Below are positions 2,327-54,418 of a DNA stretch of 64,000 bases, in pieces. The position numbers were made by a program, and so were the translations under genes. The stretch is taken from NCBI RefSeq assembly GCF_988243305.1, contig NZ_OZ547136.1, one strand, 5' to 3'. Positions within the stretch are counted from its first letter, which is position 1. Each line of letters begins with the position of its first letter. The notes under the pieces were generated by a model. The model saw only the letters and a program-made list of their open reading frames with translations, ran no database searches and was not told where the DNA came from.

Positions 2327-3447
2327 TGCGTTTTGTTGATGAATATCGCGCGCCGGAACAGGTGATGCAGTTAATTGAGCATCTGCGCGAACGTGCTTCA
2401 CATCTCTCTTACACCGCCGAACGCCCTCTGCGGATTATGGAAGTGTGTGGCGGTCATACCCACGCCATTTTTAAATTCGGCCTCGACCAGTTGCTGCCGG
2501 AAAACGTTGAGTTTATCCACGGTCCCGGTTGCCCGGTGTGCGTACTGCCGATGGGCAGAATCGACACCTGCGTGGAGATTGCCAGCCATCCGGAAGTCAT
2601 CTTCTGTACCTTTGGCGACGCCATGCGCGTACCAGGGAAACAGGGTTCGCTGTTACAGGCAAAGGCACGCGGTGCCGATGTGCGCATCGTTTACTCGCCG
2701 ATGGATGCGTTGAAACTGGCGCAGGAGAATCCAACCCGCAAAGTGGTGTTCTTCGGCTTAGGTTTTGAAACTACCATGCCGACCACCGCCATCACGTTGC
2801 AACAGGCAAAAGCCCGCGATGTGCAGAATTTTTACTTCTTCTGCCAGCACATTACGCTTATCCCGACGCTGCGCAGTTTGCTGGAACAGCCAGATAACGG
2901 TATCGACGCGTTCCTCGCGCCGGGCCACGTCAGTATGGTGATCGGCACTGATGCCTATAATTTTATCGCCAGCGATTTTCATCGTCCGCTGGTGGTCGCT
3001 GGTTTCGAACCGCTTGATCTACTGCAAGGCGTGGTCATGCTGGTGGAGCAGAAAATAGCGGCCCACAGCAAGGTAGAGAATCAGTATCGCCGGGTAGTGC
3101 CGGATGCCGGTAACCTGCTGGCGCAACAGGCAATTGCCGATGTGTTCTGTGTCAACGGCGACAGCGAATGGCGCGGCTTAGGCGTGATTGAATCTTCCGG
3201 GGTGCACCTGACGCCGGATTATCAGCGATTCGATGCCGAAGCACATTTCCGCCCGGCACCGCAGCAGGTCTGCGATGACCCGCGTGCGCGTTGTGGCGAA
3301 GTATTAACGGGCAAATGTAAGCCGCATCAATGCCCGCTATTTGGTAACACCTGTAATCCTCAAACCGCGTTTGGTGCGCTGATGGTTTCCTCCGAAGGAG
3401 CGTGCGCCGCGTGGTATCAGTATCGTCAGCAGGAGAGTGAAGCGTGA
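2326..3447 (+). CDS. hypD: Hydrogenase maturation protein HypD
   Basis: 373-aa [23 protein letters not shown]... with CGxH and CPVC motifs; overlaps hypC stop. Confidence 0.93.
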   Translation: MRFVDEYRAPEQVMQLIEHLRERASHLSYTAERPLRIMEVCGGHTHAIFKFGLDQLLPENVEFIHGPGCPVCVLPMGRIDTCVEIASHPEVIFCTFGDAMRVPGKQGSLLQAKARGADVRIVYSPMDALKLAQENPTRKVVFFGLGFETTMPTTAITLQQAKARDVQNFYFFCQHITLIPTLRSLLEQPDNGIDAFLAPGHVSMVIGTDAYNFIASDFHRPLVVAGFEPLDLLQGVVMLVEQKIAAHSKVENQYRRVVPDAGNLLAQQAIADVFCVNGDSEWRGLGVIESSGVHLTPDYQRFDAEAHFRPAPQQVCDDPRARCGEVLTGKCKPHQCPLFGNTCNPQTAFGALMVSSEGACAAWYQYRQQESEA

Positions 3448-4527: not shown

Positions 4528-6606
4528 ATGTCATATACACCGATGAGTGATCTCGGACAACAAGGGTTGTTCGACATCACTCGGACACTATTGCAGCAGC
4601 CCGATCTGGCCTCGCTGTGTGAGGCTCTTTCGCAACTGGTAAAGCGTTCTGCGCTCGCCGACAACGCGGCTATTGTGTTGTGGCAAGCGCAGACTCAACG
4701 TGCGTCTTATTACGCATCGCGTGAAAAAGACACCCCCATTAAATATGAAGACGAAACTGTTCTGGCACACGGTCCGGTACGCAGCATTTTGTCGCGCCCT
4801 GATACGCTGCATTGCAGTTACGAAGAATTTTGTGAAACCTGGCCGCAGCTGGCCGCAGGTGGGCTATACCCAAAATTTGGTCACTATTGCCTGATGCCAC
4901 TGGCGGCAGAAGGGCATATTTTTGGTGGCTGTGAATTTATTCGTTATGACGATCGCCCCTGGAGCGAAAAAGAGTTCAATCGTCTGCAAACATTTACGCA
5001 GATCGTTTCTGTCGTCACCGAACAAATCCAGAGTCGAGTCGTTAACAATGTTGACTATGAGTTGTTATGCCGGGAACGCGATAACTTCCGCATCCTGGTC
5101 GCCATCACCAACGCGGTGCTTTCCCGCCTGGATATGGACGAACTGGTCAGCGAAGTCGCCAAAGAAATCCATTACTATTTCGACATTGACGATATCAGCA
5201 TTGTCTTACGCAGCCACCGTAAAAACAAACTCAACATCTACTCCACTCACTATCTTGATAAACAACATCCCGCCCACGAACAGAGCGAAGTCGATGAAGC
5301 CGGAACCCTCACCGAACGCGTGTTCAAAAGCAAAGAGATGCTGCTGATTAATCTCCACGAGCGGGACGATTTAGCCCCCTATGAACGCATGTTGTTCGAC
5401 ACCTGGGGCAACCAGATTCAAACCTTGTGCCTGTTACCGCTGATGTCTGGCGATACCATGCTGGGCGTGCTGAAACTGGCGCAATGCGAAGAGAAAGTGT
5501 TTACCACTACCAATTTGAATTTACTGCGCCAGATTGCCGAACGTGTGGCAATCGCTGTCGATAACGCCCTCGCCTATCAGGAAATCCATCGTCTGAAAGA
5601 ACGGCTGGTTGATGAAAACCTCGCCCTGACCGAGCAGCTCAACAATGTTGATAGTGAATTTGGCGAGATTATTGGCCGCAGCGAAGCCATGTACAGCGTA
5701 CTTAAACAAGTTGAAATGGTGGCGCAAAGTGACAGTACTGTTCTGATCCTCGGTGAAACTGGTACAGGTAAAGAGCTGATTGCCCGCGCGATCCATAATC
5801 TCAGTGGGCGTAATAATCGCCGCATGGTCAAAATGAACTGCGCGGCGATGCCTGCCGGATTGCTGGAGAGCGATCTGTTTGGTCATGAGCGTGGGGCTTT
5901 TACCGGTGCCAGCGCCCAGCGTATCGGTCGTTTTGAACTGGCGGATAAAAGCTCCCTGTTCCTCGACGAAGTGGGCGATATGCCACTGGAGTTACAGCCG
6001 AAGTTGCTGCGTGTATTACAGGAACAGGAGTTTGAACGTCTCGGCAGCAACAAAATCATTCAGACGGACGTGCGTCTAATCGCCGCAACTAACCGCGATC
6101 TGAAAAAAATGGTCGCCGACCGAGAGTTCCGTAGCGATCTCTATTACCGCCTGAACGTATTCCCGATCCACCTGCCGCCACTACGCGAGCGTCCGGAAGA
6201 TATTCCGCTGCTGGCGAAAGCCTTTACCTTCAAAATTGCCCGTCGTCTGGGGCGTAATATCGACAGCATTCCTGCCGAGACGCTGCGCACCTTGAGCAAC
6301 ATGGAGTGGCCGGGTAACGTACGCGAACTGGAAAACGTCATTGAGCGCGCAGTATTGCTGACACGCGGCAACGTGCTGCAGCTGTCATTGCCAGATATTG
6401 TTTTACCGGAACCAGAAACGCCGCCTGCCGCAACAGTTGTCGCTCAGGAGGGCGAAGATGAATATCAGTTGATTGTTCGCGTGCTGAAAGAAACTAACGG
6501 CGTGGTTGCCGGGCCTAAAGGCGCTGCGCAACGTCTGGGGCTGAAACGCACGACCCTGCTGTCACGGATGAAGCGGCTTGGAATTGATAAATCGGCATTG
6601 ATTTAA
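4528..6606 (+). CDS. fhlA: Formate hydrogenlyase transcriptional activator FhlA (sigma54-dependent)
   Basis: ORF contains MSYTPMSDLGQQGLFDITRTLL..., GAF region, sigma54 AAA+ motifs (GETGTGKE, GAFTGA) and C-terminal HTH; start placed at internal ATG giving MSYTP. Confidence 0.92.
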   Translation: MSYTPMSDLGQQGLFDITRTLLQQPDLASLCEALSQLVKRSALADNAAIVLWQAQTQRASYYASREKDTPIKYEDETVLAHGPVRSILSRPDTLHCSYEEFCETWPQLAAGGLYPKFGHYCLMPLAAEGHIFGGCEFIRYDDRPWSEKEFNRLQTFTQIVSVVTEQIQSRVVNNVDYELLCRERDNFRILVAITNAVLSRLDMDELVSEVAKEIHYYFDIDDISIVLRSHRKNKLNIYSTHYLDKQHPAHEQSEVDEAGTLTERVFKSKEMLLINLHERDDLAPYERMLFDTWGNQIQTLCLLPLMSGDTMLGVLKLAQCEEKVFTTTNLNLLRQIAERVAIAVDNALAYQEIHRLKERLVDENLALTEQLNNVDSEFGEIIGRSEAMYSVLKQVEMVAQSDSTVLILGETGTGKELIARAIHNLSGRNNRRMVKMNCAAMPAGLLESDLFGHERGAFTGASAQRIGRFELADKSSLFLDEVGDMPLELQPKLLRVLQEQEFERLGSNKIIQTDVRLIAATNRDLKKMVADREFRSDLYYRLNVFPIHLPPLRERPEDIPLLAKAFTFKIARRLGRNIDSIPAETLRTLSNMEWPGNVRELENVIERAVLLTRGNVLQLSLPDIVLPEPETPPAATVVAQEGEDEYQLIVRVLKETNGVVAGPKGAAQRLGLKRTTLLSRMKRLGIDKSALI

Positions 6607-26007: not shown

Positions 26008-28414
26008 GGGAGTTCTACCGCAGGGGCGGGGAACTCCAAGTGATATCCATCATCGCATCCAGTGCGTCCGGTTTATCCCCGCTGACGCGGGGAACTCCGT
26101 GTGGGAACTACGAGTAGGCCGTTTTCTCTCGGTTTATCCCCGCTGGCGCGGGGAACTCCAATATCCGCGCCGTACCCAGCAAATGCTGACGGTTTATCCC
26201 CGCTGGCGCGGGGAACTCTACCGCATATTCACCAAAGTCCTCTATTTTGTCGGTTTATCCCCGCTGACGCGGGGAACTCGAGCGGACGCTCGACGATAAC
26301 ACCGATTTGCAAGGTTTATCCCCGCTGGCGCGGGGAACTCCAATATCCGCGCCGTACCCAGCAAATGCTGACGGTTTATCCCCGCTGGCGCGGGGAACTC
26401 TACCGCATATTCACCAAAGTCCTCTATTTTGTCGGTTTATCCCCGCTGACGCGGGGAACTCGAGCGGACGCTCGACGATAACACCGATTTGCAAGGTTTA
26501 TCCCCGCTGACGCGGGGAACTCCCGTCAGGCCGCGTCAATCGTTTAGCCCACGGCGGTTTATCCCCGCTGACGCGGGGAACTCACATGGAGTACATCATG
26601 AACAGACCACTGACCCGGTTTATCCCCGCTGACGCGGGGAACTCAGATTTTAGATGAGATGAAGTTGAATAGTTTACGGTTTATCCCCGCTGACGCGGGG
26701 AACTCATAAATCATTCTTTTCTTTCATCACCTACGACCGGTTTATCCCCGCTGACGCGGGAAACTCCTGTAGACGTTCTTTGGTAATGGTTTTCATCACG
26801 GTTTATCCCCGCTGACGCGGGGAACTCAATACTACAAACATCAAATGCGTTATTTACTGCGGTTTATCCCCGCTGACGCGGGGAACTCTAAGCCGTGACG
26901 AGGGTCGCCGCTGGCGTCAACGGTTTATCCCCGCTGACGCGGGGAACTCTTACAGATGTAATAAATCACACATGTAATAGCCGGTTTATCCCCGCTGACG
27001 CGGGGAACTCGATCGGGAGGATTTTAAACGCTGGTCAATGGCCGGTTTATCCCCGCTGACGCGGGGAACTCAATTACCGGGTGTCTAGTGCTCATACGCA
27101 GCCCGGTTTATCCCCGCTGACGCGGGGAACTCAATTACTGGGTGTCTCGTGCTCATATGCAGCCCGGTTTATCCCCGCTGACGCGGGGAACTCTTTCCCC
27201 CATGCGGGAAGCGCGTGCGATTTCGCGGTTTATCCCCGCTGACGCGGGGAACTCTTTTAGGTGTGCTGAGATTATTTGTCGCGGCGCGGTTTATCCCCGC
27301 TGACGCGGGGAACTCTTATCAGCAGCCAGACCAGCATTCGGGGAATACGGTTTATCCCCGCTGACGCGGGGAACTCATGATCAAATCAGTGCCGAGCTGG
27401 TGCAGATGCGGTTTATCCCCGCTGACGCGGGGAACTCAAAACAGGTTTGCCTGTCGCCCTCCGGTCCACCGGTTTATCCCCGCTGACGCGGGGAACTCCA
27501 ATCCGTTTATTACTTTATTTCTGCCGCCTTCGGTTTATCCCCGCTGACGCGGGGAACTCCAACGTTTTGGTAATCAACGGAAGGAGCTTCGCGGTTTATC
27601 CCCGCTGACGCGGGGAACTCAATAAATTCAGGAGCGGTAACGATATATTTAACGGTTTATCCCCGCTGACGCGGGGAACTCGTAAAGGCGTTGCCCTGTT
27701 CCGTCGCTGTTGTCGGTTTATCCCCGCTGACGCGGGGAACTCATCCGTTAATTATTGAGAGAGCTATCAGCTATCGGTTTATCCCCGCTGACGCGGGGAA
27801 CTCACCATCAGTCCTTGAGCCGAGAAAATCGCCGCCGGTTTATCCCCGCTGACGCGGGGAACTCAGCTATATACGGGAGCAAGATTATAATATCTGCGGT
27901 TTATCCCCGCTGACGCGGGGAACTCTTTCGCCCAATCTTGCGCGCTCTGACCTATCTGGGTTTATCCCCGCTGACGCGGGGAACTCGTGGGTGGCTGCCG
28001 TCGCGGCTGGTGCTGCGGCGGTTTATCCCCGCTGACGCGGGGAACTCACTGAGTATTTGCCTCAAGTGATGTACTGGTCCGGTTTATCCCCGCTGACGCG
28101 GGGAACTCAATATCGCCGTCAATGCCAATATTTTTCCGCGCGGTTTATCCCCGCTGACGCGGGGAACTCGTGAAAATAGAGGAAGGGCGCATTATTGGCG
28201 GCGGTTTATCCCCGCTGACGCGGGGAACTCGCGTCAGAAGCGATTGAATCAATAGCGGATCACGGTTTATCCCCGCTGACGCGGGGAACTCGTCCATTTT
28301 CCCCCTGGAGGCTGTAATTCACCGCGGTTTATCCCCGCTGACGCGGGGAACTCTTATTCAGCCAACGCGGCGCGGGGCTTGTTTGCGGTTTATCCCCGCT
28401 GACGCGGGGAACTC
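26008..28414 (-). CRISPR. Type I-E CRISPR array: 39 full 29-bp repeats plus one degenerate terminal repeat, 39 spacers (36 unique)
   Basis: Repeat CGGTTTATCCCCGCTG(G/A)CGCGGGGAACTC on the plus strand at about 61-bp period from 26069 to 28386; degenerate repeat 26008-26036 at the iap end; leader at the cas2 end, so the array is transcribed on the minus strand. Confidence 0.97.
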
Positions 28415-28519
28415 TCTAAAAGTATACATTTGTTCTTAAAGCATTTTTTCCCATAAAAACAACCCACCAACCTTAATGTAACATTTCCTTATTATTAAAG
28501 ATCAGCTAATTCTTTGTTT
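28415..28519 (-). promoter_or_regulatory. CRISPR leader
   Basis: AT-rich about 105-bp segment between the last repeat and the cas2 stop. Confidence 0.7.
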
Positions 28520-29723
<1,204 letters not shown>

Positions 29724-29738
29724 TTTATTACACCTAAA

Positions 29739-30338
29739 TCACAGTGGAGCCAAAGATAGCAAGCCACATCCCATCGATTTAGCTGGCCCAATACCTTGCT
29801 GTACAAGATCTATTAACGCTGGCGCGTCGTTGATGGTGATCACCCCTTCAAAGCAAACCGTTTGAATCTTTCCACTTTTACCATCACCAGAAAAATACTG
29901 TGGCCGTTCCGATATGGGATGCACATCTTCAACGCGCGCCGCATTGCCCAATTTACGTTGCAACCACGCGATTTGTTCTGCTTCTTTTATTAACGGAACC
30001 CGACAGCGTTTAATATTCCCTTTACTATCCAGGCGCTTTTGATTGTCGAGAATAGTTTTGATCGGATTTGCCCGAAGCCGAAAATAGAGTGGAACACCAA
30101 CCTGAAGTTGAAATTCAACCTGTTTAGTTTTAATGACTGTCGCAACAGCAGTTGAAACAGGCATTTGCGCTGACTGCAATAAAACATGACAGCCTTCTGG
30201 TGTGTTTCGCTTCTCAACATGAAAAAGAAAATCACGAGCAGCATCCGGTCTGTTTGGAAATAAATGCCATAATCCCTGGTGAAGTTGGTAAAGATCCCTG
30301 CTCCAGGCCCTGGCAATGATGACTTTACTGAGATACAT
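29739..30338 (-). CDS. casE: crRNA endoribonuclease Cas6e (CasE)
   Basis: 199-aa ORF MYLSKVIIARAWSRDLYQLHQGLWHLFPNRPDAARDFLFHVEKR... Confidence 0.95.
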   Translation of the reverse strand: MYLSKVIIARAWSRDLYQLHQGLWHLFPNRPDAARDFLFHVEKRNTPEGCHVLLQSAQMPVSTAVATVIKTKQVEFQLQVGVPLYFRLRANPIKTILDNQKRLDSKGNIKRCRVPLIKEAEQIAWLQRKLGNAARVEDVHPISERPQYFSGDGKSGKIQTVCFEGVITINDAPALIDLVQQGIGPAKSMGCGLLSLAPL

Positions 30339-30999
30339 CCATACCTCCTTTAATCACATACCATTCTCGGGAAGCAAATTGTCGAGGTAAGGTGATCATC
30401 GGTTCGTCGCGCGCCGTAAATTTTAAATGATGCCCTGTAACTGATTCCTCACTATAAATATCGCCGCCAACGGGCTCATAATTTAATAGCGCCTTCTGAG
30501 GATCCGATGCCTGACATGTCCCCAAAAAAAGCGGGTGTGTTAGTGGGCAACTTCTCCGCCCCAGGTAGGGTGTATACCGAGGCTTTAATACTGCTTTTTC
30601 AAGTTCTGAGATAACCATCGTTGCATGGGGTGTTAACCAGAGAGCGACGGTAAAGGAGGCATCACATAAATATTCGCGCCATGTTTGAATCGTTTCATGA
30701 CTTTTCAAACCACGGTAATCTTCTCGCGCTCCAAGGACTGTATGGTAATCACGCAACCCCGTTACAGACACACGACGATCGTCAAGAATGAGTTCATCGC
30801 AGCGCACTGCAAATTGCACACTCTCTGATAACACCTGTAATGAAGAAGTATCATCACGTTGGATCCCAAGACAAGCCCCGAGTAGCCCTAATAACCCGCT
30901 TCGGGTCGGAAAACTTCCGGTAGGTCGCGTTCCTTCAAAGGTCGGCAGCCCCCAGGCTTGCATTGGCCCAGCAAGCCGCAAGATCAAATAAGATCTCAT
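30325..30999 (-). CDS. casD: Cascade subunit Cas5e (CasD)
   Basis: ORF contains MRSYLILRLAGPMQAWGLPTFEGTRPTG...; start placed at the second ATG. Confidence 0.93.
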   Translation of the reverse strand: MRSYLILRLAGPMQAWGLPTFEGTRPTGSFPTRSGLLGLLGACLGIQRDDTSSLQVLSESVQFAVRCDELILDDRRVSVTGLRDYHTVLGAREDYRGLKSHETIQTWREYLCDASFTVALWLTPHATMVISELEKAVLKPRYTPYLGRRSCPLTHPLFLGTCQASDPQKALLNYEPVGGDIYSEESVTGHHLKFTARDEPMITLPRQFASREWYVIKGGMDVSQ

Positions 31000-31001
31000 G
31001 T

Positions 31002-32093
31002 TCATGCCTCGCCATTATTACGAACCCAGGATTTTAACTGTTCTAAAGTAGGCATTTGTTTAACTTGAGCAGTAATTGGGTCTACATCAGATAAGCTGAA
31101 TTGCGCAGCAGCTCCGTTCAGACCATATCCATTGGCAACGCGATCCCAATATTGATTAAACGCCTGTATAGACGGTTGCAAAAAGCCATCTTTCGCTTTA
31201 ACAGCTTTTTCAAAAGCATTTGCCATAGAAAGTGGCATATCGGAGAAATTAACCATTACCATATCCGCAGGGTTAAAAGCGGCATAAGTACGCTGTTTTG
31301 CTCCAGGGACCTCTGTTGCCAGCATATGAACAACATTGGTTGCAATTTCCAGAGCCTGCTCCCTGGAGGCACCACCTAAATTTTCCTGAAGTTGAGCGAG
31401 GTTAATGTTGGCGTAACGATAAAAAACACCCGATGAAAATTCCTGAGTTCCCAGATGTGCAGAACCTTGTTCCTGTAAATCATCTACAGCGGTGAACCAG
31501 TCAATATCTGAATCAACCTGATGAGTAGTGATCGCATGCGCAATGGACATTGCACCATCAACTTTTCCCAACTCACTCATCATGCCGCTGGTTGCCATTC
31601 TTCCGCTAAGCGCAATATCAACACCCTGCTGTAAATTCACACGTATGGCGGCAATATCTTCCTTAAGAACTTTGAGCAGCTTTTTATCATCCAGATTATC
31701 AGCCTCTGCTTTTGCAACCTGCTCACAGAACCAGGCTATTTCTCCCACAACCCAGGGAGTAACCGCATCGGCAGAAATCTTTTCGGCTTCATCAACTAAT
31801 TTACCGGAGAGCAGCGCTAATGTCTTATCGATGATTTTTTGGTCAAAACGTTCACCAAGTTTTTGCCGAAGAACATCACGTAATTGTGCAAGATGAATTG
31901 TTCTGAGACTGGATTCACCAATATTTTGTGCGTAATAATCACTTTTACGCATCGCACGTTTAAGGCTTTGACTTGAAATTCTTACTCGTCTTTTCCCGCC
32001 GAAAATAGCGTCTTTCTGCATGTTCATATCGTCGCGGTTCAGACATGAAGGGCTGTGAGAGATCAGAACATGAATATTGATAAAGTTAGACAT
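31002..32093 (-). CDS. casC: Cascade backbone subunit Cas7e (CasC)
   Basis: 363-aa [52 protein letters not shown]... Confidence 0.95.
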
Positions 32094-32105
32094 AGAAAGG
32101 TTTCC

Positions 32106-32588
32106 TTACGCATTTTTGTTTGTGGTCAATACAAAATCTTCCAGAAGTTGCTGGCGTTCGCGCTTTCCCCACCAGGTCAACATCCTGGCCATTAATGGCC
32201 AGTCAAGTACGGGTTCGGCGTGAGTAAGTAATCGACGTAACTGGACCATATCGGCTGTTCTGTCAGCCCGAATTAATTGAAAGATACGGCGCTCGTTAAT
32301 TCTTCCACTATTGGCTAAAGCTCTTCCCAACGAGATACCTGTTGTTTGCTCCGGTTTTTTGTCCTGATGTCGGATGACATTCTTTCCTGCGCTCAGGCAA
32401 AACACCATGCGCAAAAGAGCCTGCTGGTGACGTGGGTTTTCCCAACCAAAAGGTTGCACCAACCGATAAAACGCAGGGATATCGCGTAATTCATCAGGTT
32501 CTGAAACACGTCTAATTTGCGCACATGCTCCATTATCCAGTTGTTGCCAGGCTCGATATAAAGCCATTGCATCAATTTCATCAGCCAT
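32106..32588 (-). CDS. casB: Cascade small subunit Cse2 (CasB)
   Basis: 160-aa ORF MADEIDAMALYRAWQQLDNGACAQIRRVSEPDELRDIPAFYRLVQPFG... Confidence 0.95.
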   Translation of the reverse strand: MADEIDAMALYRAWQQLDNGACAQIRRVSEPDELRDIPAFYRLVQPFGWENPRHQQALLRMVFCLSAGKNVIRHQDKKPEQTTGISLGRALANSGRINERRIFQLIRADRTADMVQLRRLLTHAEPVLDWPLMARMLTWWGKRERQQLLEDFVLTTNKNA

Positions 32589-34089
32589 TTGATGGCCCTC
32601 CTTGCGGTTTTAACTCCCGTAAATGTTTGTATAGCGTGGCGCGGGCAAGCGCTAATGTGCTTATTAATTTAGGATGATGTGCATAGGGAGCTACAGATTG
32701 ATTAAATAGCATTTCACACAATTGATGAAGTTTGTCTCGTAAATCAGCTATTACCTCATCAGCCTGGGAAAAATTAATTTTCGCCAATACATCTGGAATT
32801 AATAATTCACTCTGTCGATAGAAATGCCTTTCTGCAGTCTCATGAACAGAGACTCCGGCCCCTTTGAAGTCTTTATTTTTAAACCCTTCTGCAAAGGTAT
32901 ATAACGCCTTGCGTAAGGCTGTTTTATACCCCAAACCAACAGTCACTATTTCGTTTATAACATTGCCGTATTGTTGCCACCCCTGATTAAACATCAGCAC
33001 ATCATGACGTCGTTCAAGAATAGATGCTTGATTATTACGATATCCCCCCATAATCAATTCAAGAGGACTTTGCGGCGCAATATTTCTGAATTGATTCACA
33101 ACCGCCGCCACGCGATTTCCATTTTCATTTTGAATAATCTTATCTACCACAACTCGGCTGATTTGCGTCCATGATGGTGCGGAGGTGGTGAAAGCAAGAA
33201 ATTTTTCCTCAACCTTCCCTTTCTTGACTGTTACCAGACAAGGGGAATGCGGATGGGGCCATAGTCCATTAACTGTAAAGGTAAATTTTTCCTTAAGAAA
33301 ACCGGTATAACGCAAATTGCTTTCCTGTCCACAGCAAGAACATTTACCAATCCCAATGGGATCGCATAGTTCAATATGCGCTGGTTGCCAGAATAAACCA
33401 CGGACAAACCCAATTGACGAAGCTGGCACAGATTCATTGGGCTTGATAGGCTTAATCCAGGTAGGTTGGTTTTCCGTATGTAATTCATTGGGAAATTGTT
33501 TTTGAAGACGAGGTATTGTGAGGACATTGAGTAATACCGTCGAGCGAAGATCGATCCCACATACGAAGGTGGTTATAGGTGTTCCTCCACGTAAACCGCT
33601 TTTAAAGCCACCACCAAAACCAGGTGCCTGATTCGCCTGGTTGAATAACGCAATCGCAGTGCATCCACCACATAATGCTTCACCCTGCCCCGGTTGATTG
33701 ACAAATGCACAATTCGTCGCGCCGCTTACCCCAGCCAACAGTTTTTCCATTGGAGTCACATCATTTGCTTTGACACCTTTGGTCTGCATAAAGGGATGTT
33801 CTGCGTGATTAAGGTAGAACATATCTATCCACGGCGCGATGAGTTGTTGAAACTCATCTTCAGTGAGCGGATTCATTATGCGATGTCGAAATTCAACGTC
33901 ATCTTTTGCCGGGGCGATAATTTGTCCAATGCAAACCAGCAGTGCTAAAGCGGCCAGTTCCATATCGTCACGGGGCAAACTTAATCGCCACTGATCTCTA
34001 CTGCAGTATAGCGATTGCAGATTTAGGATTTGGACTTTCCCCCCGTTTCGCGGGCGTACAGGGATCCAGTTATCAATAAGCAAATTCAT
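32581..34089 (-). CDS. casA: Cascade large subunit Cse1 (CasA)
   Basis: 502-aa ORF MNLLIDNWIPVRPRNGGKVQILNLQSLYCSRDQWRLSLPRDDMELAA... Confidence 0.95.
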   Translation of the reverse strand: MNLLIDNWIPVRPRNGGKVQILNLQSLYCSRDQWRLSLPRDDMELAALALLVCIGQIIAPAKDDVEFRHRIMNPLTEDEFQQLIAPWIDMFYLNHAEHPFMQTKGVKANDVTPMEKLLAGVSGATNCAFVNQPGQGEALCGGCTAIALFNQANQAPGFGGGFKSGLRGGTPITTFVCGIDLRSTVLLNVLTIPRLQKQFPNELHTENQPTWIKPIKPNESVPASSIGFVRGLFWQPAHIELCDPIGIGKCSCCGQESNLRYTGFLKEKFTFTVNGLWPHPHSPCLVTVKKGKVEEKFLAFTTSAPSWTQISRVVVDKIIQNENGNRVAAVVNQFRNIAPQSPLELIMGGYRNNQASILERRHDVLMFNQGWQQYGNVINEIVTVGLGYKTALRKALYTFAEGFKNKDFKGAGVSVHETAERHFYRQSELLIPDVLAKINFSQADEVIADLRDKLHQLCEMLFNQSVAPYAHHPKLISTLALARATLYKHLRELKPQGGPSNG

Positions 34090-34504
34090 TTGTTCTCCTT
34101 CATATGCTCCGACATTTCTCCTGCATTTCTATACGTCGGAACACTTCCGTTATCGGTAAAAACAAAGAAAAAATACGGCGTAATTAATTCAATAATCACA
34201 TTCACTGCAAAAATATATTCATTGGTTTAATACAATTAACCTATGCATATATTAAGATGTGTTGAATTGTTTAAAGACAATAATGCATGCATTTCAAATC
34301 TGCAAGTTATTCGTTTTATTATCAAAGAAATTTTTTAGTTATAATAATTACCATAAATTTTATTACATAAAATATTCATACTGTGAATATAAAATCTCAT
34401 ACCGGGAAATTAAAAGAAGATGTACATTGTGCACCTTCCCTACTTAAGTAGGGATAAACCGTTATTGGTCTTGTTATCGTCATTGATACCAATCATTCCC
34501 GAAG
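34090..34504 (-). promoter_or_regulatory. AT-rich casA-cas3 intergenic region; expected site of the Cascade operon promoter and divergent antisense promoter
   Basis: 415-bp strongly AT-rich non-coding segment directly upstream of casA; in E. coli type I-E loci this region carries the H-NS-repressed, LeuO-activated promoter (established knowledge; exact -10/-35 elements not pinned down here). Confidence 0.45.
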
Positions 34505-37171
34505 TTATTTGGGATTTGCAGGGATGACTCTGGTCATCCCTTCATCCCGAGTGTAGGTAATAACAATATTATTACCCTGCCAGATCCATCCATCCTGATT
34601 CTGTTTCCCTTCCAGCCAAAGTAACCCATCTTCATCTACTACTTCAGAAAAACTACGTTTCCAGGTGAAGGGTACATTGACGCGATTAAGTGCTAACGCC
34701 TCATACTGCTGTTCATGACTTAGGTCCTCGTAGACCTGGCCATCGAGCAGTTGTTTACCTGAAGACGTTTGTACATAAGGCAATAATGGCAGGCTCATTT
34801 CCCCATCCCTCGTTACCGCAAGAATGGTTTCATCGTTATCCTGCAAGCTATATTCTTCAGCCCACTGCAGAACCTTACGAGCCTTGAACCTTTTTTCACA
34901 CTCGGCGCTTTCAAACTTATCCATGCCTTTGATGACCCATTCTGGCTCATCCATTTCCGCATCATCGTAAATGCTATCCAGCCATTGCCGGTAGGCATCA
35001 GGGAAAAATAAGGATGCTCCATTAAGTTCCTCAATATGTTGCTGCGTCCGCCACATGACTCTAACGTTGCTATAAATATGCTCATGTCGTCCGTAACCTT
35101 CGCCATCAGGCAGCAAAATGGTGGCAAGAGGAATCTCAAAACCAACGGGGCGATATTTACGATGATGGCGATGTAAACGGCCCAATCGTTGGAAAAGCAA
35201 ATCTGCGGGACAATGCTGAGTAATTAACCAATCAAAATCAACGTCGAGTGATTGTTCCACGACCTGTGTGGCAACAAGTATTCTTCCAACATTTCGCTCC
35301 CCATTTTTCCCAAAATTACTAATAACACGATTCTCTTTTTCACGGCGATCGTTCAGCGTAAAGCGCGCATGAAACAAATCTATATCTACTTGCGTGTTAT
35401 TTAGTTCCTTTAACCGTTGGTGGCATAGTTGTGCAACATCAACCAAATTGCAGATAAGACAGACTTGTGCACCCGCATTTGCCGCTGCGATCATTCGCTC
35501 TAACATCGTAAGGTCAGGTAACATGTCAGCTAAATAAATAGGTTCTGGCTGAATCGAAAAGCGGGGCGGGAGTTGTTCTGGATGAGCTAACAGATCAAAA
35601 CGTTGCGCACCATTCACACCTCGCCAGTTAATGAGTGGATATGCGGAGTTATTTTCCTCTGGATCTGTATGCAGACCATAAGTATCCAGAAGTTTCTGTT
35701 TTTGTTTCATTGGTAGAGTTGCGGAAAGAAGAATAACACTCCCCCCCACATCAGCCTGAGCCTTGAGCACAGCCTCCAGCAAGCCGTTCATATACGTGTC
35801 GTAAGCATGAACTTCATCAACAATTAAAACACTTCGACCAATTCCCAAACCACGGATAAAGCGGTGTTTAACTGGCAATACCGATATCAACACCTGATCA
35901 ATCGTGCAAACGCCTATTTGCCCAAGAAACACTTTCTTATTGCTTTGTGACAACCATTGGCAACACTGAACCCACGCTTCTTCTTGCCCCTGCTCAGTAA
36001 ATGCGCGTGATTTTATTGATTGAAAAAGGTGGTTAAAACGTGAATTACCATGAGCAAGAATAAGATTTGGGGAGGTAAATAAACGGCTCGCGTTCGCTTC
36101 CATTCTGCTGAGCATTGCATTTGCAGTAGCTTGTGTAGGGAGGGCAAAAATAACACTATCCGCAAGTTGTTGGTCAATAAGTTTCCAGGCATAGGCCAGC
36201 GCTGTTTCGGTTTTACCTGATCCCGTAGGTGCCTCAATCACCGTCAGCCCGGGAGCTGTAGGAAGAGCATCAACCAACACCTGTAATTGTCTTGGTTGAT
36301 AGCCATTGTCCAGTAAGGCATGTACGCCGTCATAACTACGCTTATTTGATACAAGGCCACTCAACTCAAGTACCCGACACGCATCCTGTTGTCTATCCTG
36401 AAAATATTTTCTTAGCGCTTGTATGCCTGAAGGTGCATCTTCTTTGAATAGAAAGGTATCCGTTGTGGTCCAGGAACCTAACCAGTCAGCAAGCGAGCAA
36501 AAACCTGCTAACAATGATGAACAATCAGGTGGTATATCGTTTATAGATAACCCGGCTGGTGTTAAAAATAATGCTTCGAGTACAGATATCCACTCCTCAC
36601 GAGCCTGTTTATCTTGCGCAGCATAAGATGCCAGAGAAGCTGGCATTTCCCAACGCGACTTATCTTGATCCTGGGAATGTAATATAAAACCATGATGTCC
36701 TGTAACGGCCTCTACCCAAGGAAACCAGGACTCATAAGGATGAGGAGCGGCATCAAAAAAACTGAAAAAATCCCCGGGAGATTGCTCTGAAAGTGAATCC
36801 TGGTTAAACCAATACAGACCGGCTGCACCATGATTAAATTTACGGCACATTTGTGTTGATGGACCATTAAGTGATGGCGTTGCAGGATTTAATTTCAGCC
36901 AACTTTCTGCTGATTTATATTGGAATCGTATATCAAACTTTCCGATATCATGAAGGGCAATGAAAAATAACAGCCAGGCTTTCACCTTCTGTTTTGATAG
37001 CATTTCATTTCGGCAAAAAGCATTTTGTAGTACGACTGATTGATCCCACCAGCAATCTGCAACAGCTGCAACATCCAGGCAATGATAAATCAACAGATGA
37101 ATATCATTTCCTTTCGTCAGGCTTTTTGAGGATTTCCCCCAGTAATGACATATATATTTAAAAGGTTCCAT
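34505..37171 (-). CDS. cas3: CRISPR-associated nuclease/helicase Cas3 (type I-E)
   Basis: 888-aa ORF MEPFKYICHYWGKSSKSLTKGNDIHLLIYHCLDVAAV... with HD domain followed by DEAD/DEAH helicase motifs (APTGSGKT, DEVH). Confidence 0.95.
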   Translation of the reverse strand: MEPFKYICHYWGKSSKSLTKGNDIHLLIYHCLDVAAVADCWWDQSVVLQNAFCRNEMLSKQKVKAWLLFFIALHDIGKFDIRFQYKSAESWLKLNPATPSLNGPSTQMCRKFNHGAAGLYWFNQDSLSEQSPGDFFSFFDAAPHPYESWFPWVEAVTGHHGFILHSQDQDKSRWEMPASLASYAAQDKQAREEWISVLEALFLTPAGLSINDIPPDCSSLLAGFCSLADWLGSWTTTDTFLFKEDAPSGIQALRKYFQDRQQDACRVLELSGLVSNKRSYDGVHALLDNGYQPRQLQVLVDALPTAPGLTVIEAPTGSGKTETALAYAWKLIDQQLADSVIFALPTQATANAMLSRMEANASRLFTSPNLILAHGNSRFNHLFQSIKSRAFTEQGQEEAWVQCCQWLSQSNKKVFLGQIGVCTIDQVLISVLPVKHRFIRGLGIGRSVLIVDEVHAYDTYMNGLLEAVLKAQADVGGSVILLSATLPMKQKQKLLDTYGLHTDPEENNSAYPLINWRGVNGAQRFDLLAHPEQLPPRFSIQPEPIYLADMLPDLTMLERMIAAANAGAQVCLICNLVDVAQLCHQRLKELNNTQVDIDLFHARFTLNDRREKENRVISNFGKNGERNVGRILVATQVVEQSLDVDFDWLITQHCPADLLFQRLGRLHRHHRKYRPVGFEIPLATILLPDGEGYGRHEHIYSNVRVMWRTQQHIEELNGASLFFPDAYRQWLDSIYDDAEMDEPEWVIKGMDKFESAECEKRFKARKVLQWAEEYSLQDNDETILAVTRDGEMSLPLLPYVQTSSGKQLLDGQVYEDLSHEQQYEALALNRVNVPFTWKRSFSEVVDEDGLLWLEGKQNQDGWIWQGNNIVITYTRDEGMTRVIPANPK

Positions 37172-53370: not shown

Positions 53371-53508
53371 TGGTTATCCCCGCTGACGTGGGGAACATAA
53401 GTTCGACAACTTAAAAAATGATAACAAGTCCGGTTTATCCCCGCTGATGCAGGGAACATAATAAAAACTTTAACTAGTTCGGTTTATCCCTGTTGTTACA
53501 AGGAATAT
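53371..53508 (-). CRISPR. Degenerate CRISPR remnant (three decayed repeat-like units)
   Basis: TGGTTATCCCCGCTGACGTGGGGAACAT / CGGTTTATCCCCGCTGATGCAGGGAACAT / CGGTTTATCCCTGTTGTTACAAGGAATAT separated by 32-nt and about 20-nt spacers. Confidence 0.7.
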
Positions 53509-53962: not shown

Positions 53963-54418
53963 TGGTTTATCCCCGCTGGCGCGGGGAACTCCGTCAGTGT
54001 GCCAGTTGCTACTGTTTCCCATACGGTTTATCCCCGCTGACGCGGGGAACTCATCAGTGATATCCAACATTGCGGAGCTAAACGCGGTTTATCCCCGCTG
54101 GCGCGGGGAACTCTATAAATGTGCCATATACGGCGTTTGTTGCCTCGGTTTATCCCCGCTGGCGCGGGGAACTCCTCCCGGTGATGCGGGTTATGTGGCC
54201 TGCCGCCGGTTTATCCCCGCTGGCGCGGGGAACTCTTCGCCGCGTCAACAATTCGGACCTGTAAATCCGGTTTATCCCCGCTGGCGCGGGGAACTCATCC
54301 GGCGAACGCGCTACAGAGTACAGTTCACCGGTTTATCCCCGCTGGCGCGGGGAACTCGGAAACCGCCCCGGCGGTGGTTAGCTGTTTGCCGGTTTATCCC
54401 CGCTGGCGCGGGGAACTC
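53963..54418 (-). CRISPR. Second type I-E CRISPR array: 8 repeats, 7 spacers
   Basis: Same 29-bp repeat at 61-bp period (53963, 54024, 54085, 54146, 54207, 54268, 54329, 54390); AT-rich leader-like sequence beginning TCTCTAAA at the high-coordinate end, as in array 1. Confidence 0.93.

Follow-up and report, generated by a model that had tools for sequence, protein, structure and literature searches.

The two spellings of the CRISPR repeat that occur in the array at positions 26069–28414 are arranged in runs, and these runs most probably (at a rough estimate of 85%) result from the copying of the leader-adjacent repeat at each spacer acquisition, combined with a switch of this repeat to the A-type spelling and a later duplication. 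The two spellings, G-type and A-type, differ at repeat position 17. The window, which here means the whole 64,000-nt stretch of DNA that was analysed, was identified by sequence scans as the iap-CRISPR-cas region of E. coli; a consensus scan with the 29-bp repeat CGGTTTATCCCCGCTGGCGCGGGGAACTC found 39 repeats with 61-bp spacing at 26069–28414 (array 1), and eight more at 53963–54418 (array 2). All 47 repeats show at most two differences from the published consensus CGGTTTATCCCCGCTGGCGCGGGGAAC[A/T]C, and they share its 29-bp (28+1) form and its 61-bp periodicity. Judged by sequence, the two arrays are the chromosomal type I-E CRISPR2.1/2.3 system of E. coli. Both are transcribed on the minus strand; array 1, the CRISPR2.1 array, is transcribed from its leader and consists of 39 repeats and 38 spacers (35 of them distinct), which are 32 nt long except for two of 31 nt and one of 33 nt, while the spacers of array 2 are all 32 nt. 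One spacer of array 1 (27377–27408) may match bcsE of the strain itself, in which case a non-CTT flank would shield this target from interference.

The surroundings of array 1 define its polarity. On one side it is bounded by an AT-rich leader of the K-12 “T” type (28415–28519, minus strand), identical to K-12 over the stretch read; on the other side follow, in leftward order, the ancestral oldest spacer (26037–26068, minus strand), a degenerate terminal or trailer repeat (26008–26036, minus strand), and iap. The terminal repeat retains approximately 19 of the 29 consensus positions and a perfect ...GCGGGGAACTC end, and the same element is found in K-12, ST648, and KTa005; the ancestral spacer is conserved across E. 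coli, reading CAAGTGATATCCATCATCGCATCCAGTGCG(T/C)C in K-12 and KTa005, with a variant beginning with T in ST648. These two elements had been overlooked by the first-pass annotation of this DNA, together with three relic repeats at 53371, 53431, and 53480. Since the leader starts at 28415, the high-coordinate end of array 1 is the young end, and the G-type repeats between 26130 and 26372 lie at the old end, as had been proposed.

Beyond the leader follows a complete and intact type I-E cas operon (28520–37171, minus strand; open reading frames and NCBIfam curated cut-offs), consisting of cas2e (28520–28804), cas1e (28806–29723), cas6e (29739–30338), cas5e (30325–31005), cas7e (31002–32093), casB (32106–32588), casA (32581–34089), and cas3 (34505–37171), all on the minus strand; all eight proteins score above the curated cut-offs. 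The operon is located between iap and cysH, a placement backed by synteny in near-identical records. A scan of the array against Rfam, at gathering and E-value thresholds, brought no CRISPR repeat family to its gathering score; the sole match, Chlorobi-1, is a sub-threshold chance hit (22 bits vs. 50). The Rfam library evidently lacks a model for this repeat, and this miss is therefore no argument against type I-E membership.

Array 1 corresponds to the CRISPR2.1 array of K-12 (iap-cas2) in its chromosomal position, in its leader, and in the lengths of its cas genes; the terminal repeat and the ancestral spacer are common to both and are one or two bases off, and in both strains variant repeats are confined to the trailer end. 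In K-12, G-type repeats extend up to the leader, and the trailer variants are GCTGATGC...AACAC, CCCTGC, and GCTAACGC; in the window, by contrast, A-type repeats reach the leader, and the 38 spacers are different ones. Two repeat classes of E. coli, the duplicon variants CRISPR-A and CRISPR-T, have been associated with particular variants of the leader and of cas-E (Diez-Villasenor et al., 2013; PMC3737337); by this linkage the window, with its repeat end …AACTC, its leader-T, and its K-12-type cas operon, represents CRISPR-T. These classes concern position 28; the polymorphism in the window is at position 17, which is undiscussed as a variant in that study, where the species consensus is written with A at this position (Diez-Villasenor et al., 2013; PMC3737337).

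A pattern scan of array 1 recovered the distribution that had been described in the first-pass annotation: position 17 is G in the repeats at 26130, 26190, 26312, and 26372 only, and A in the other 35 of 39. Read from the old end, the position-17 string is AGGAGGA, followed by 32 A up to position 28414; the leader-adjacent repeat, the presumed template (28386–28414, minus strand), is A-type. The oldest full repeat at 26069 is A-type as well, and matches the equivalent repeats of K-12 (the oldest repeat there, with A at position 17) and of KTa005 at this position. By chance, four G-type repeats would be confined to the oldest six of 39 with a probability of 1.8e-4, and permutation gives P = 0.025 for at most five runs along the array. 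The claim that the variants are distributed non-randomly thus holds for the repeats as counted; its apparent strength depends on the independence of the four G-type repeats, of which only two are independent.

The blocks 26130–26311 and 26312–26493 show a single difference, in their first base (C vs. A). In E. coli the leader-distal C of the repeat is brought in by the spacer to its left and does not belong to the copied part (Diez-Villasenor et al., 2013; PMC3737337), which justifies shifting the register by one base; in this register 26131–26312 is identical to 26313–26494, so that three repeat-spacer units are duplicated in tandem over 182 bp without a mismatch (no strand assigned to either copy). 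TRF likewise reported a period of 182 in array 1. The original two G-type repeats and the spacer between them (26130–26218, minus strand; repeats at 26130–26158 and 26190–26218) occur with the same repeats and spacers in strain NY1601, whereas the second copy, which holds the duplicated G-type repeats 26312 and 26372, is absent from that strain. The repeat at the junction (26312–26340, minus strand) is a hybrid: its first base, A, derives from the preceding spacer and corresponds to the base after the fourth spacer, and at position 17 it carries G, as does 26130. The closing repeat at 26494 has A at both positions; it differs from 26130 at positions 1 and 17, and from 26312 at position 17 only. 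Both parental repeats of the hybrid are found in NY1601, and the make-up of 26312 places the crossover within repeat positions 2–16. The same spacers in the same order, the hybrid junction repeat, and the absence of the second copy from the closest relative characterise this as a segmental duplication; the perfect identity of its copies and the hybrid repeat between them demonstrate that array 1 has recombined internally.

Consequently, the four G-type repeats are only two independent ones, doubled by the 182-bp duplication, and a count of four overstates the evidence. With the duplication collapsed, two adjacent G-type repeats remain at positions 2 and 3 of 36; the probability that two G-type repeats are adjacent is 0.056, and that both fall among the oldest three of 36 is 0.005. 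Since NY1601 lacks the duplication, it is recent and specific to the strain of the window, and postdates the split from NY1601. The duplication is known from one assembly, and a metagenome scan for the duplicated second spacer, in which relatives or the junction were sought, gave no matches. An assembly artefact, which would remove two of the four G-type repeats, agrees with the perfect identity of the copies, with their absence from the closest relative, and with the ease with which repeat arrays are misassembled; yet an assembler would need reads that cross the join of the fourth to the second spacer, the hybrid repeat at this join is composed exactly as expected from a crossover, and perfect unit duplications occur in other arrays and are reported to be common in E. 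coli (Kupczok et al., 2015; PMC4524480), so that an artefact is improbable. Duplication has been described as the main source of spacer order inversions in E. coli arrays (Kupczok, Landan and Dagan, 2015; PMC4524480), and the window resembles that system in its duplicated spacers within an array and, in a related strain, in a non-collinear spacer order. Unlike in that study, where repeats were not used for this purpose, the repeat polymorphisms in the window place the crossover in positions 2–16.

Among 5,426 complete E. coli genomes, two close relatives were found, NY1601 and Z1323HEC0462; their cas-cys DNA (11.6 kb) is 99.6 and 99.5% identical to the window, respectively, and the next best genomes reach 98.4%. 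NY1601 has the five oldest spacers of the window without the duplication, and its repeats there read A,G,G,A,A'; it holds the window spacers 1–4, 8, 17, 18, and 21 in the same order, and carries nine unique spacers on the leader side. This collinearity of the old spacers, together with the nine unshared ones next to the leader, shows polar growth directly. From the fourth repeat onward, in ancestral order, all repeats are A-type in the window as well as in NY1601, and in Z1323HEC0462 all seven repeats are A-type; the boundary of the run is inherited at the homologous position in these relatives. An unbroken series of A-type repeats from the fourth ancestral repeat to the leader, common to both relatives, supports the suggestion that the templating repeat had switched. 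In Z1323HEC0462 the window spacers 26, 27, 14, and 16 are followed by one that is absent from the window and then by 30, an order that fits a duplication followed by deletions.

Insertion of a spacer at the leader by Cas1-Cas2 duplicates the leader-adjacent repeat, an established mechanism in which the new repeat replicates the one adjoining the leader (Diez-Villasenor et al., 2013; PMC3737337); under the preferred reading, because this repeat is the one duplicated, the order of repeat spellings records the allele that stood beside the leader at each acquisition. The leader-adjacent repeat would have turned A-type after the third ancestral spacer, and all later units would have inherited A. 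The later duplication that doubled the two surviving G-type units would stem from slippage or unequal recombination involving repeats that lie 182 bp from each other. The A at the leader-adjacent repeat would have its source in a point mutation or in recombination; in the window one transition suffices, since all window repeats carry T at position 28.

The oldest end of the array speaks against a strictly single switch, which does not alone account for it: the oldest full repeat at 26069 is A, and the next two are G. The A at 26069 would imply either an older A phase from which the intervening units were deleted, or two changes at the same site.

Variants that occur once in the array provide a second line of evidence. 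First-base variants (A at 26312 and 26494, G at 27958, and T at 53963) had been overlooked in the first-pass annotation; the G instead of C at 27958 (minus strand) is a base that comes in with the spacer and is not copied from the repeat. Neither the first-base variants at 26312/26494 and 27958 nor the mutated repeat at 26738 have been propagated to other repeats; mutations of internal repeats and spacer-derived first bases remain single, and a contiguous run of A-type repeats reaches the leader. The combination of one-off variants that were not propagated with an unbroken A run is what copying of the leader-adjacent repeat predicts.

The mutated repeat (26738–26766, minus strand; pattern scan and folding) is private; it carries G24A on the + strand (C6U in the crRNA), giving ...GCGGGAAACTC. 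Predicted folding turns the C6-G21 pair into a U-G wobble and raises the minimum free energy to −12.2 kcal/mol with unchanged structure, compared to −15.1 kcal/mol for the two common types, so that the weakening of the stem that had been noted previously is borne out. The repeats beside 26738 are normal, and the mutation therefore dates from a time when this repeat no longer stood next to the leader; according to the copying model, it would have occurred in a repeat that was already displaced and would never have been copied. The units flanking 26738 were found in neither of the two close relatives, NY1601 and Z1323HEC0462.

Folding assigns the variable base of the G- and A-type repeats to RNA position 13, where it is the second of the four tetraloop bases (GCCA/GUCA) of the crRNA hairpin, in accordance with its earlier assignment to the hairpin loop. 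Both types are predicted to form the same 7-bp hairpin at −15.1 kcal/mol, with the fold ....(((((((....)))))))....... and z-scores of −3.6 to −4.0 relative to shuffled sequences. A Dcm-site hotspot for the C-to-T change was considered and rejected on inspection, as the repeat has CCAGC and not CCWGG. The G/A site lies between the inverted-repeat halves that Cas6e and Cas1-Cas2 require and is therefore nearly free to vary, and folding and literature together suggest neutrality. Acquisition falls at most 3-fold when bases between the inverted repeats are substituted, and this is the least conserved part of the repeat (PMC5039180); a literature search on Cas6e and the tetraloop yielded nothing useful. 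Selection of the A allele for better crRNA processing or spacer integration could account for its arrival at the leader in approximately 13% of arrays with this leader, and for its recurrence in Salmonella and in old relic repeats. The identical predicted hairpin energies of both types, the tolerance of the site between the inverted repeats to substitution, the continuing majority of the G allele, and the coexistence of both alleles within single arrays stand against it, and make such selection extremely unlikely.

The A allele beside the leader is not private to the lineage of the window. A 64-nt query consisting of the A-type repeat and 35 nt of leader matched exactly in approximately 165–172 of 1,240 complete E. 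coli genomes with this leader, and K-12 and most other genomes were one base off. In the leader/cas region the window shows 20 mismatches in 2,986 nt to the G-type strain ST648, and 72 to the A-type strain ST540; with A beside the leader on at least two cas backgrounds, the allele either arose more than once or moved by recombination. This leads to the alternative that the A-type leader side was imported, either from the array of another strain or by conversion from an A-type repeat elsewhere, in which case the G/A boundary would mark the junction. Several observations speak for an import. In WS0115A and KTa005 the repeats change from G17-A28 to A17-T28 in one step, and in ST540 the haplotypes G17-A28 and A17-T28 alternate along one array; these two-position switches and this mosaic are hard to obtain by serial point mutation, and such mosaic repeat haplotypes show that recombination shapes CRISPR arrays in E. 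coli. Z1323HEC0462 carries window spacers in non-collinear order, arrays with A beside the leader accompany different cas backgrounds, and recombination in E. coli arrays has been inferred previously (Kupczok et al., 2015; PMC4524480).

For the window, these arguments meet counter-evidence. No spacer is shared between the A run of the window and the A runs of WS0115A, ST540, and KTa005, and with T at position 28 throughout the window, one transition explains the switch. The leader and cas2 are near-identical among the compared strains and give no signal either way; the leader shows no differences between the window and ST648, ST540, and WS0115A over the stretch compared, and leader plus cas2 show no SNPs relative to ST648 and one relative to ST540 and to WS0115A. 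On balance an import is possible but unlikely. In a separate comparison, array 1 of NRZ14408 has A at position 17 throughout and A also at position 28; an origin of the A17-T28 repeats from a crossover inside the repeat, between an A17-A28 and a G17-T28 array, was rejected for the window, as none of its repeats, including those at the trailer end, has A at position 28.

Read from the trailer, position 17 shows A, G, G and then an A run in the window and NY1601, and also in WS0115A and KTa005; these two pairs have unrelated spacers and different bases at position 28. If this likeness is more than chance, the oldest repeats could have been conserved as “fossils” while inter-strain recombination, with crossovers inside repeats, replaced the spacers between them, a reading that is very doubtful; should it be true, repeat haplotypes could map crossovers species-wide.

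Array 2, the CRISPR2.3 array (53963–54418, minus strand; leader from 54419), has eight repeats that are G-type except for one, as had been reported; the lone A-type repeat (54024–54052, minus strand; pattern scan) holds the second-oldest position, between the two oldest spacers of the array. In each array the minority allele is thus the majority allele of the other, and lies at the old end; the first-pass annotation had taken the distribution as a hint of past recombination between arrays. Under an exchange within the genome, array 2 would be the source of the G-type repeats of array 1, and array 1 that of the A-type repeat of array 2. A spacer in array 1 of KTa005, which resembles a spacer of array 2 of the window with four mismatches, could also be cited for it. 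However, a comparison of arrays 1 and 2 of the window found no common spacers. The equivalent of the A-type repeat at 54024 is found between the same oldest spacers, which show two and one substitutions, in NRZ14408 and isolate 362, strains that differ from the window in the type of their array 1 repeats (A17-A28 in NRZ14408) and in their younger array 2 spacers; and in NY1601 the G-type units of array 1 have been inherited along with their spacers. The A-type repeat at 54024 is thus an old inherited unit of several lineages and no recent transfer from array 1, and an exchange between the arrays is hardly credible.

Variant runs of this kind are real and ordinary, and have already been published for the same repeat and nucleotide. 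Conserved stretches of repeat variants in CRISPR1/2 of Escherichia and Salmonella were taken to imply duplication of the adjacent repeat, and a Salmonella array with GCTGACGC and GCTGGCGC repeats in runs was tabulated (Touchon and Rocha, 2010, PLoS One, Table S6; PMC2886076). The window shares with that system the repeat family, the polymorphic position (GCTGACGC vs. GCTGGCGC), the contiguous runs, and the conclusion drawn from them. The published example, Salmonella Schwarzengrund, has A-type repeats at the old end, G-type repeats at the new end, and AACAC repeat ends; relative to it, the allele polarity in the window is reversed and a segmental duplication is superimposed. What the window adds is that its four G-type repeats are two that were doubled, that the crossover lies within 15 bp of a repeat, and that the A-type repeat of array 2 is old and inherited in several lineages. 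The significance beyond this strain is small, the pattern being a textbook-consistent trace of polarised repeat duplication; yet point variants of repeats are useful internal markers that here reduce the G-type count, date the duplication after the split from NY1601, and place the crossover, and the same logic could serve finer CRISPR-based strain typing and the counting of recombination events in E. coli arrays.

In a scan of one genome per species, the exact A-type 29-mer occurred at two loci only, in E. coli E69 and as a single repeat in Pseudocitrobacter, and is thus essentially confined to E. coli. In the Pseudocitrobacter array, position 28 switches cleanly between 10 old GAGTT repeats and 19 new GTGTT repeats, and one unit is perfectly duplicated as well, which indicates that run switching and unit duplication are both general. 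A CRISPR2.2 relic in the window consists of three degenerate repeats (53371–53508, minus strand), two of them with A at position 17, and is likewise found in Z1323HEC0462.

At position 17, the G/A site of the 29-bp repeat, the arrays of Escherichia coli strains WS0115A (L010 2208-3029) and KTa005 (L013 2635-3578) read A, G, G and then a run of A; this order is identical to that of the window, and the spacers are unrelated. Both of these arrays combine repeats of the haplotypes G17-A28 and A17-T28 (named for the bases at positions 17 and 28), and so does the array of strain ST540 (L011 2513-3029), in which the two haplotypes alternate. The type I-E array of Pseudocitrobacter vendiensis (L015 4464-6205; 29 repeats) switches cleanly at position 28, from 10 GAGTT repeats to 19 GTGTT repeats; a loop variant occurs there once, the last repeat is also a variant, and one repeat-spacer unit is present as a perfect tandem duplication at 5994/6055. 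Within the window, the CRISPR2.2 relic (53371-53508) retains three degenerate repeats, the first of them one base short and the third about half conserved; two of the three carry A at position 17 (GCTGACGT and GCTGATGC), which points to an early origin of the A state.

In array 1 of the relative Z1323HEC0462 (L002 30587-30981), the spacers shared with the window are non-collinear, running 26, 27, 14, 16, one spacer foreign to the window, and 30, and the entire old end of the window array, including both G-type repeats, is missing; judged from the spacer order and this loss, the Z1323HEC0462 array implies either a duplication combined with deletions, or recombination. In array 1 of the window, the neighboring spacers 27072-27103 and 27133-27164 are alike at all but 3 of 32 positions, and NY1601 carries both, with identical differences between them. 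A single spacer could have been duplicated and its copies could then have diverged; since the repeat separating the two spacers is intact, it is more likely that variants of one target were acquired on two occasions. Spacer 54114-54145 of array 2 (TATAAATGTGCCATATACGGCGTTTGTTGCCT) and a spacer of KTa005 array 1 (L013, about 2969-3000) are similar, with four mismatches between them; different strains have taken up a related target, each in a different array.

Among 5,426 complete E. coli genomes, 5,115 contain a match to spacer 27377-27408 of array 1 (ATGATCAAATCAGTGCCGAGCTGGTGCAGATG) in bcsE, a core gene of the chromosome; in 3,196 genomes, the majority of those matched, the 34 aligned nt show no mismatch. 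The flank of the bcsE target on the spacer’s strand, as read in one record, is CGC rather than CTT, the motif that belongs to the K-12-type system; the spacer is probably self-derived, and probably tolerated because its PAM is non-functional. Spacer 26584-26615 is among the very few that matched anything beyond bacterial chromosomes: over 32 nt, it matched at 93.8-96.9% genes for hypothetical proteins on Salmonella plasmids of ~124 kb and on one Hafnia plasmid. The match of spacer 27011-27042 to Stenotrophomonas phages was marginal (E = 1e-3).

Outliers in spacer length are the duplicated second spacer (26159-26189 and 26341-26371), with 31 nt and a unit period of 60 bp, and spacer 28292-28324, with 33 nt and a unit period of 62 bp. 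Tandem Repeats Finder also reported two short tandem repeats that have no relation to CRISPR: one at 16852-16927 (period 24, 3.2 copies) and the other in the casA-cas3 intergenic region at 34367-34415 (period 21, 2.3 copies).
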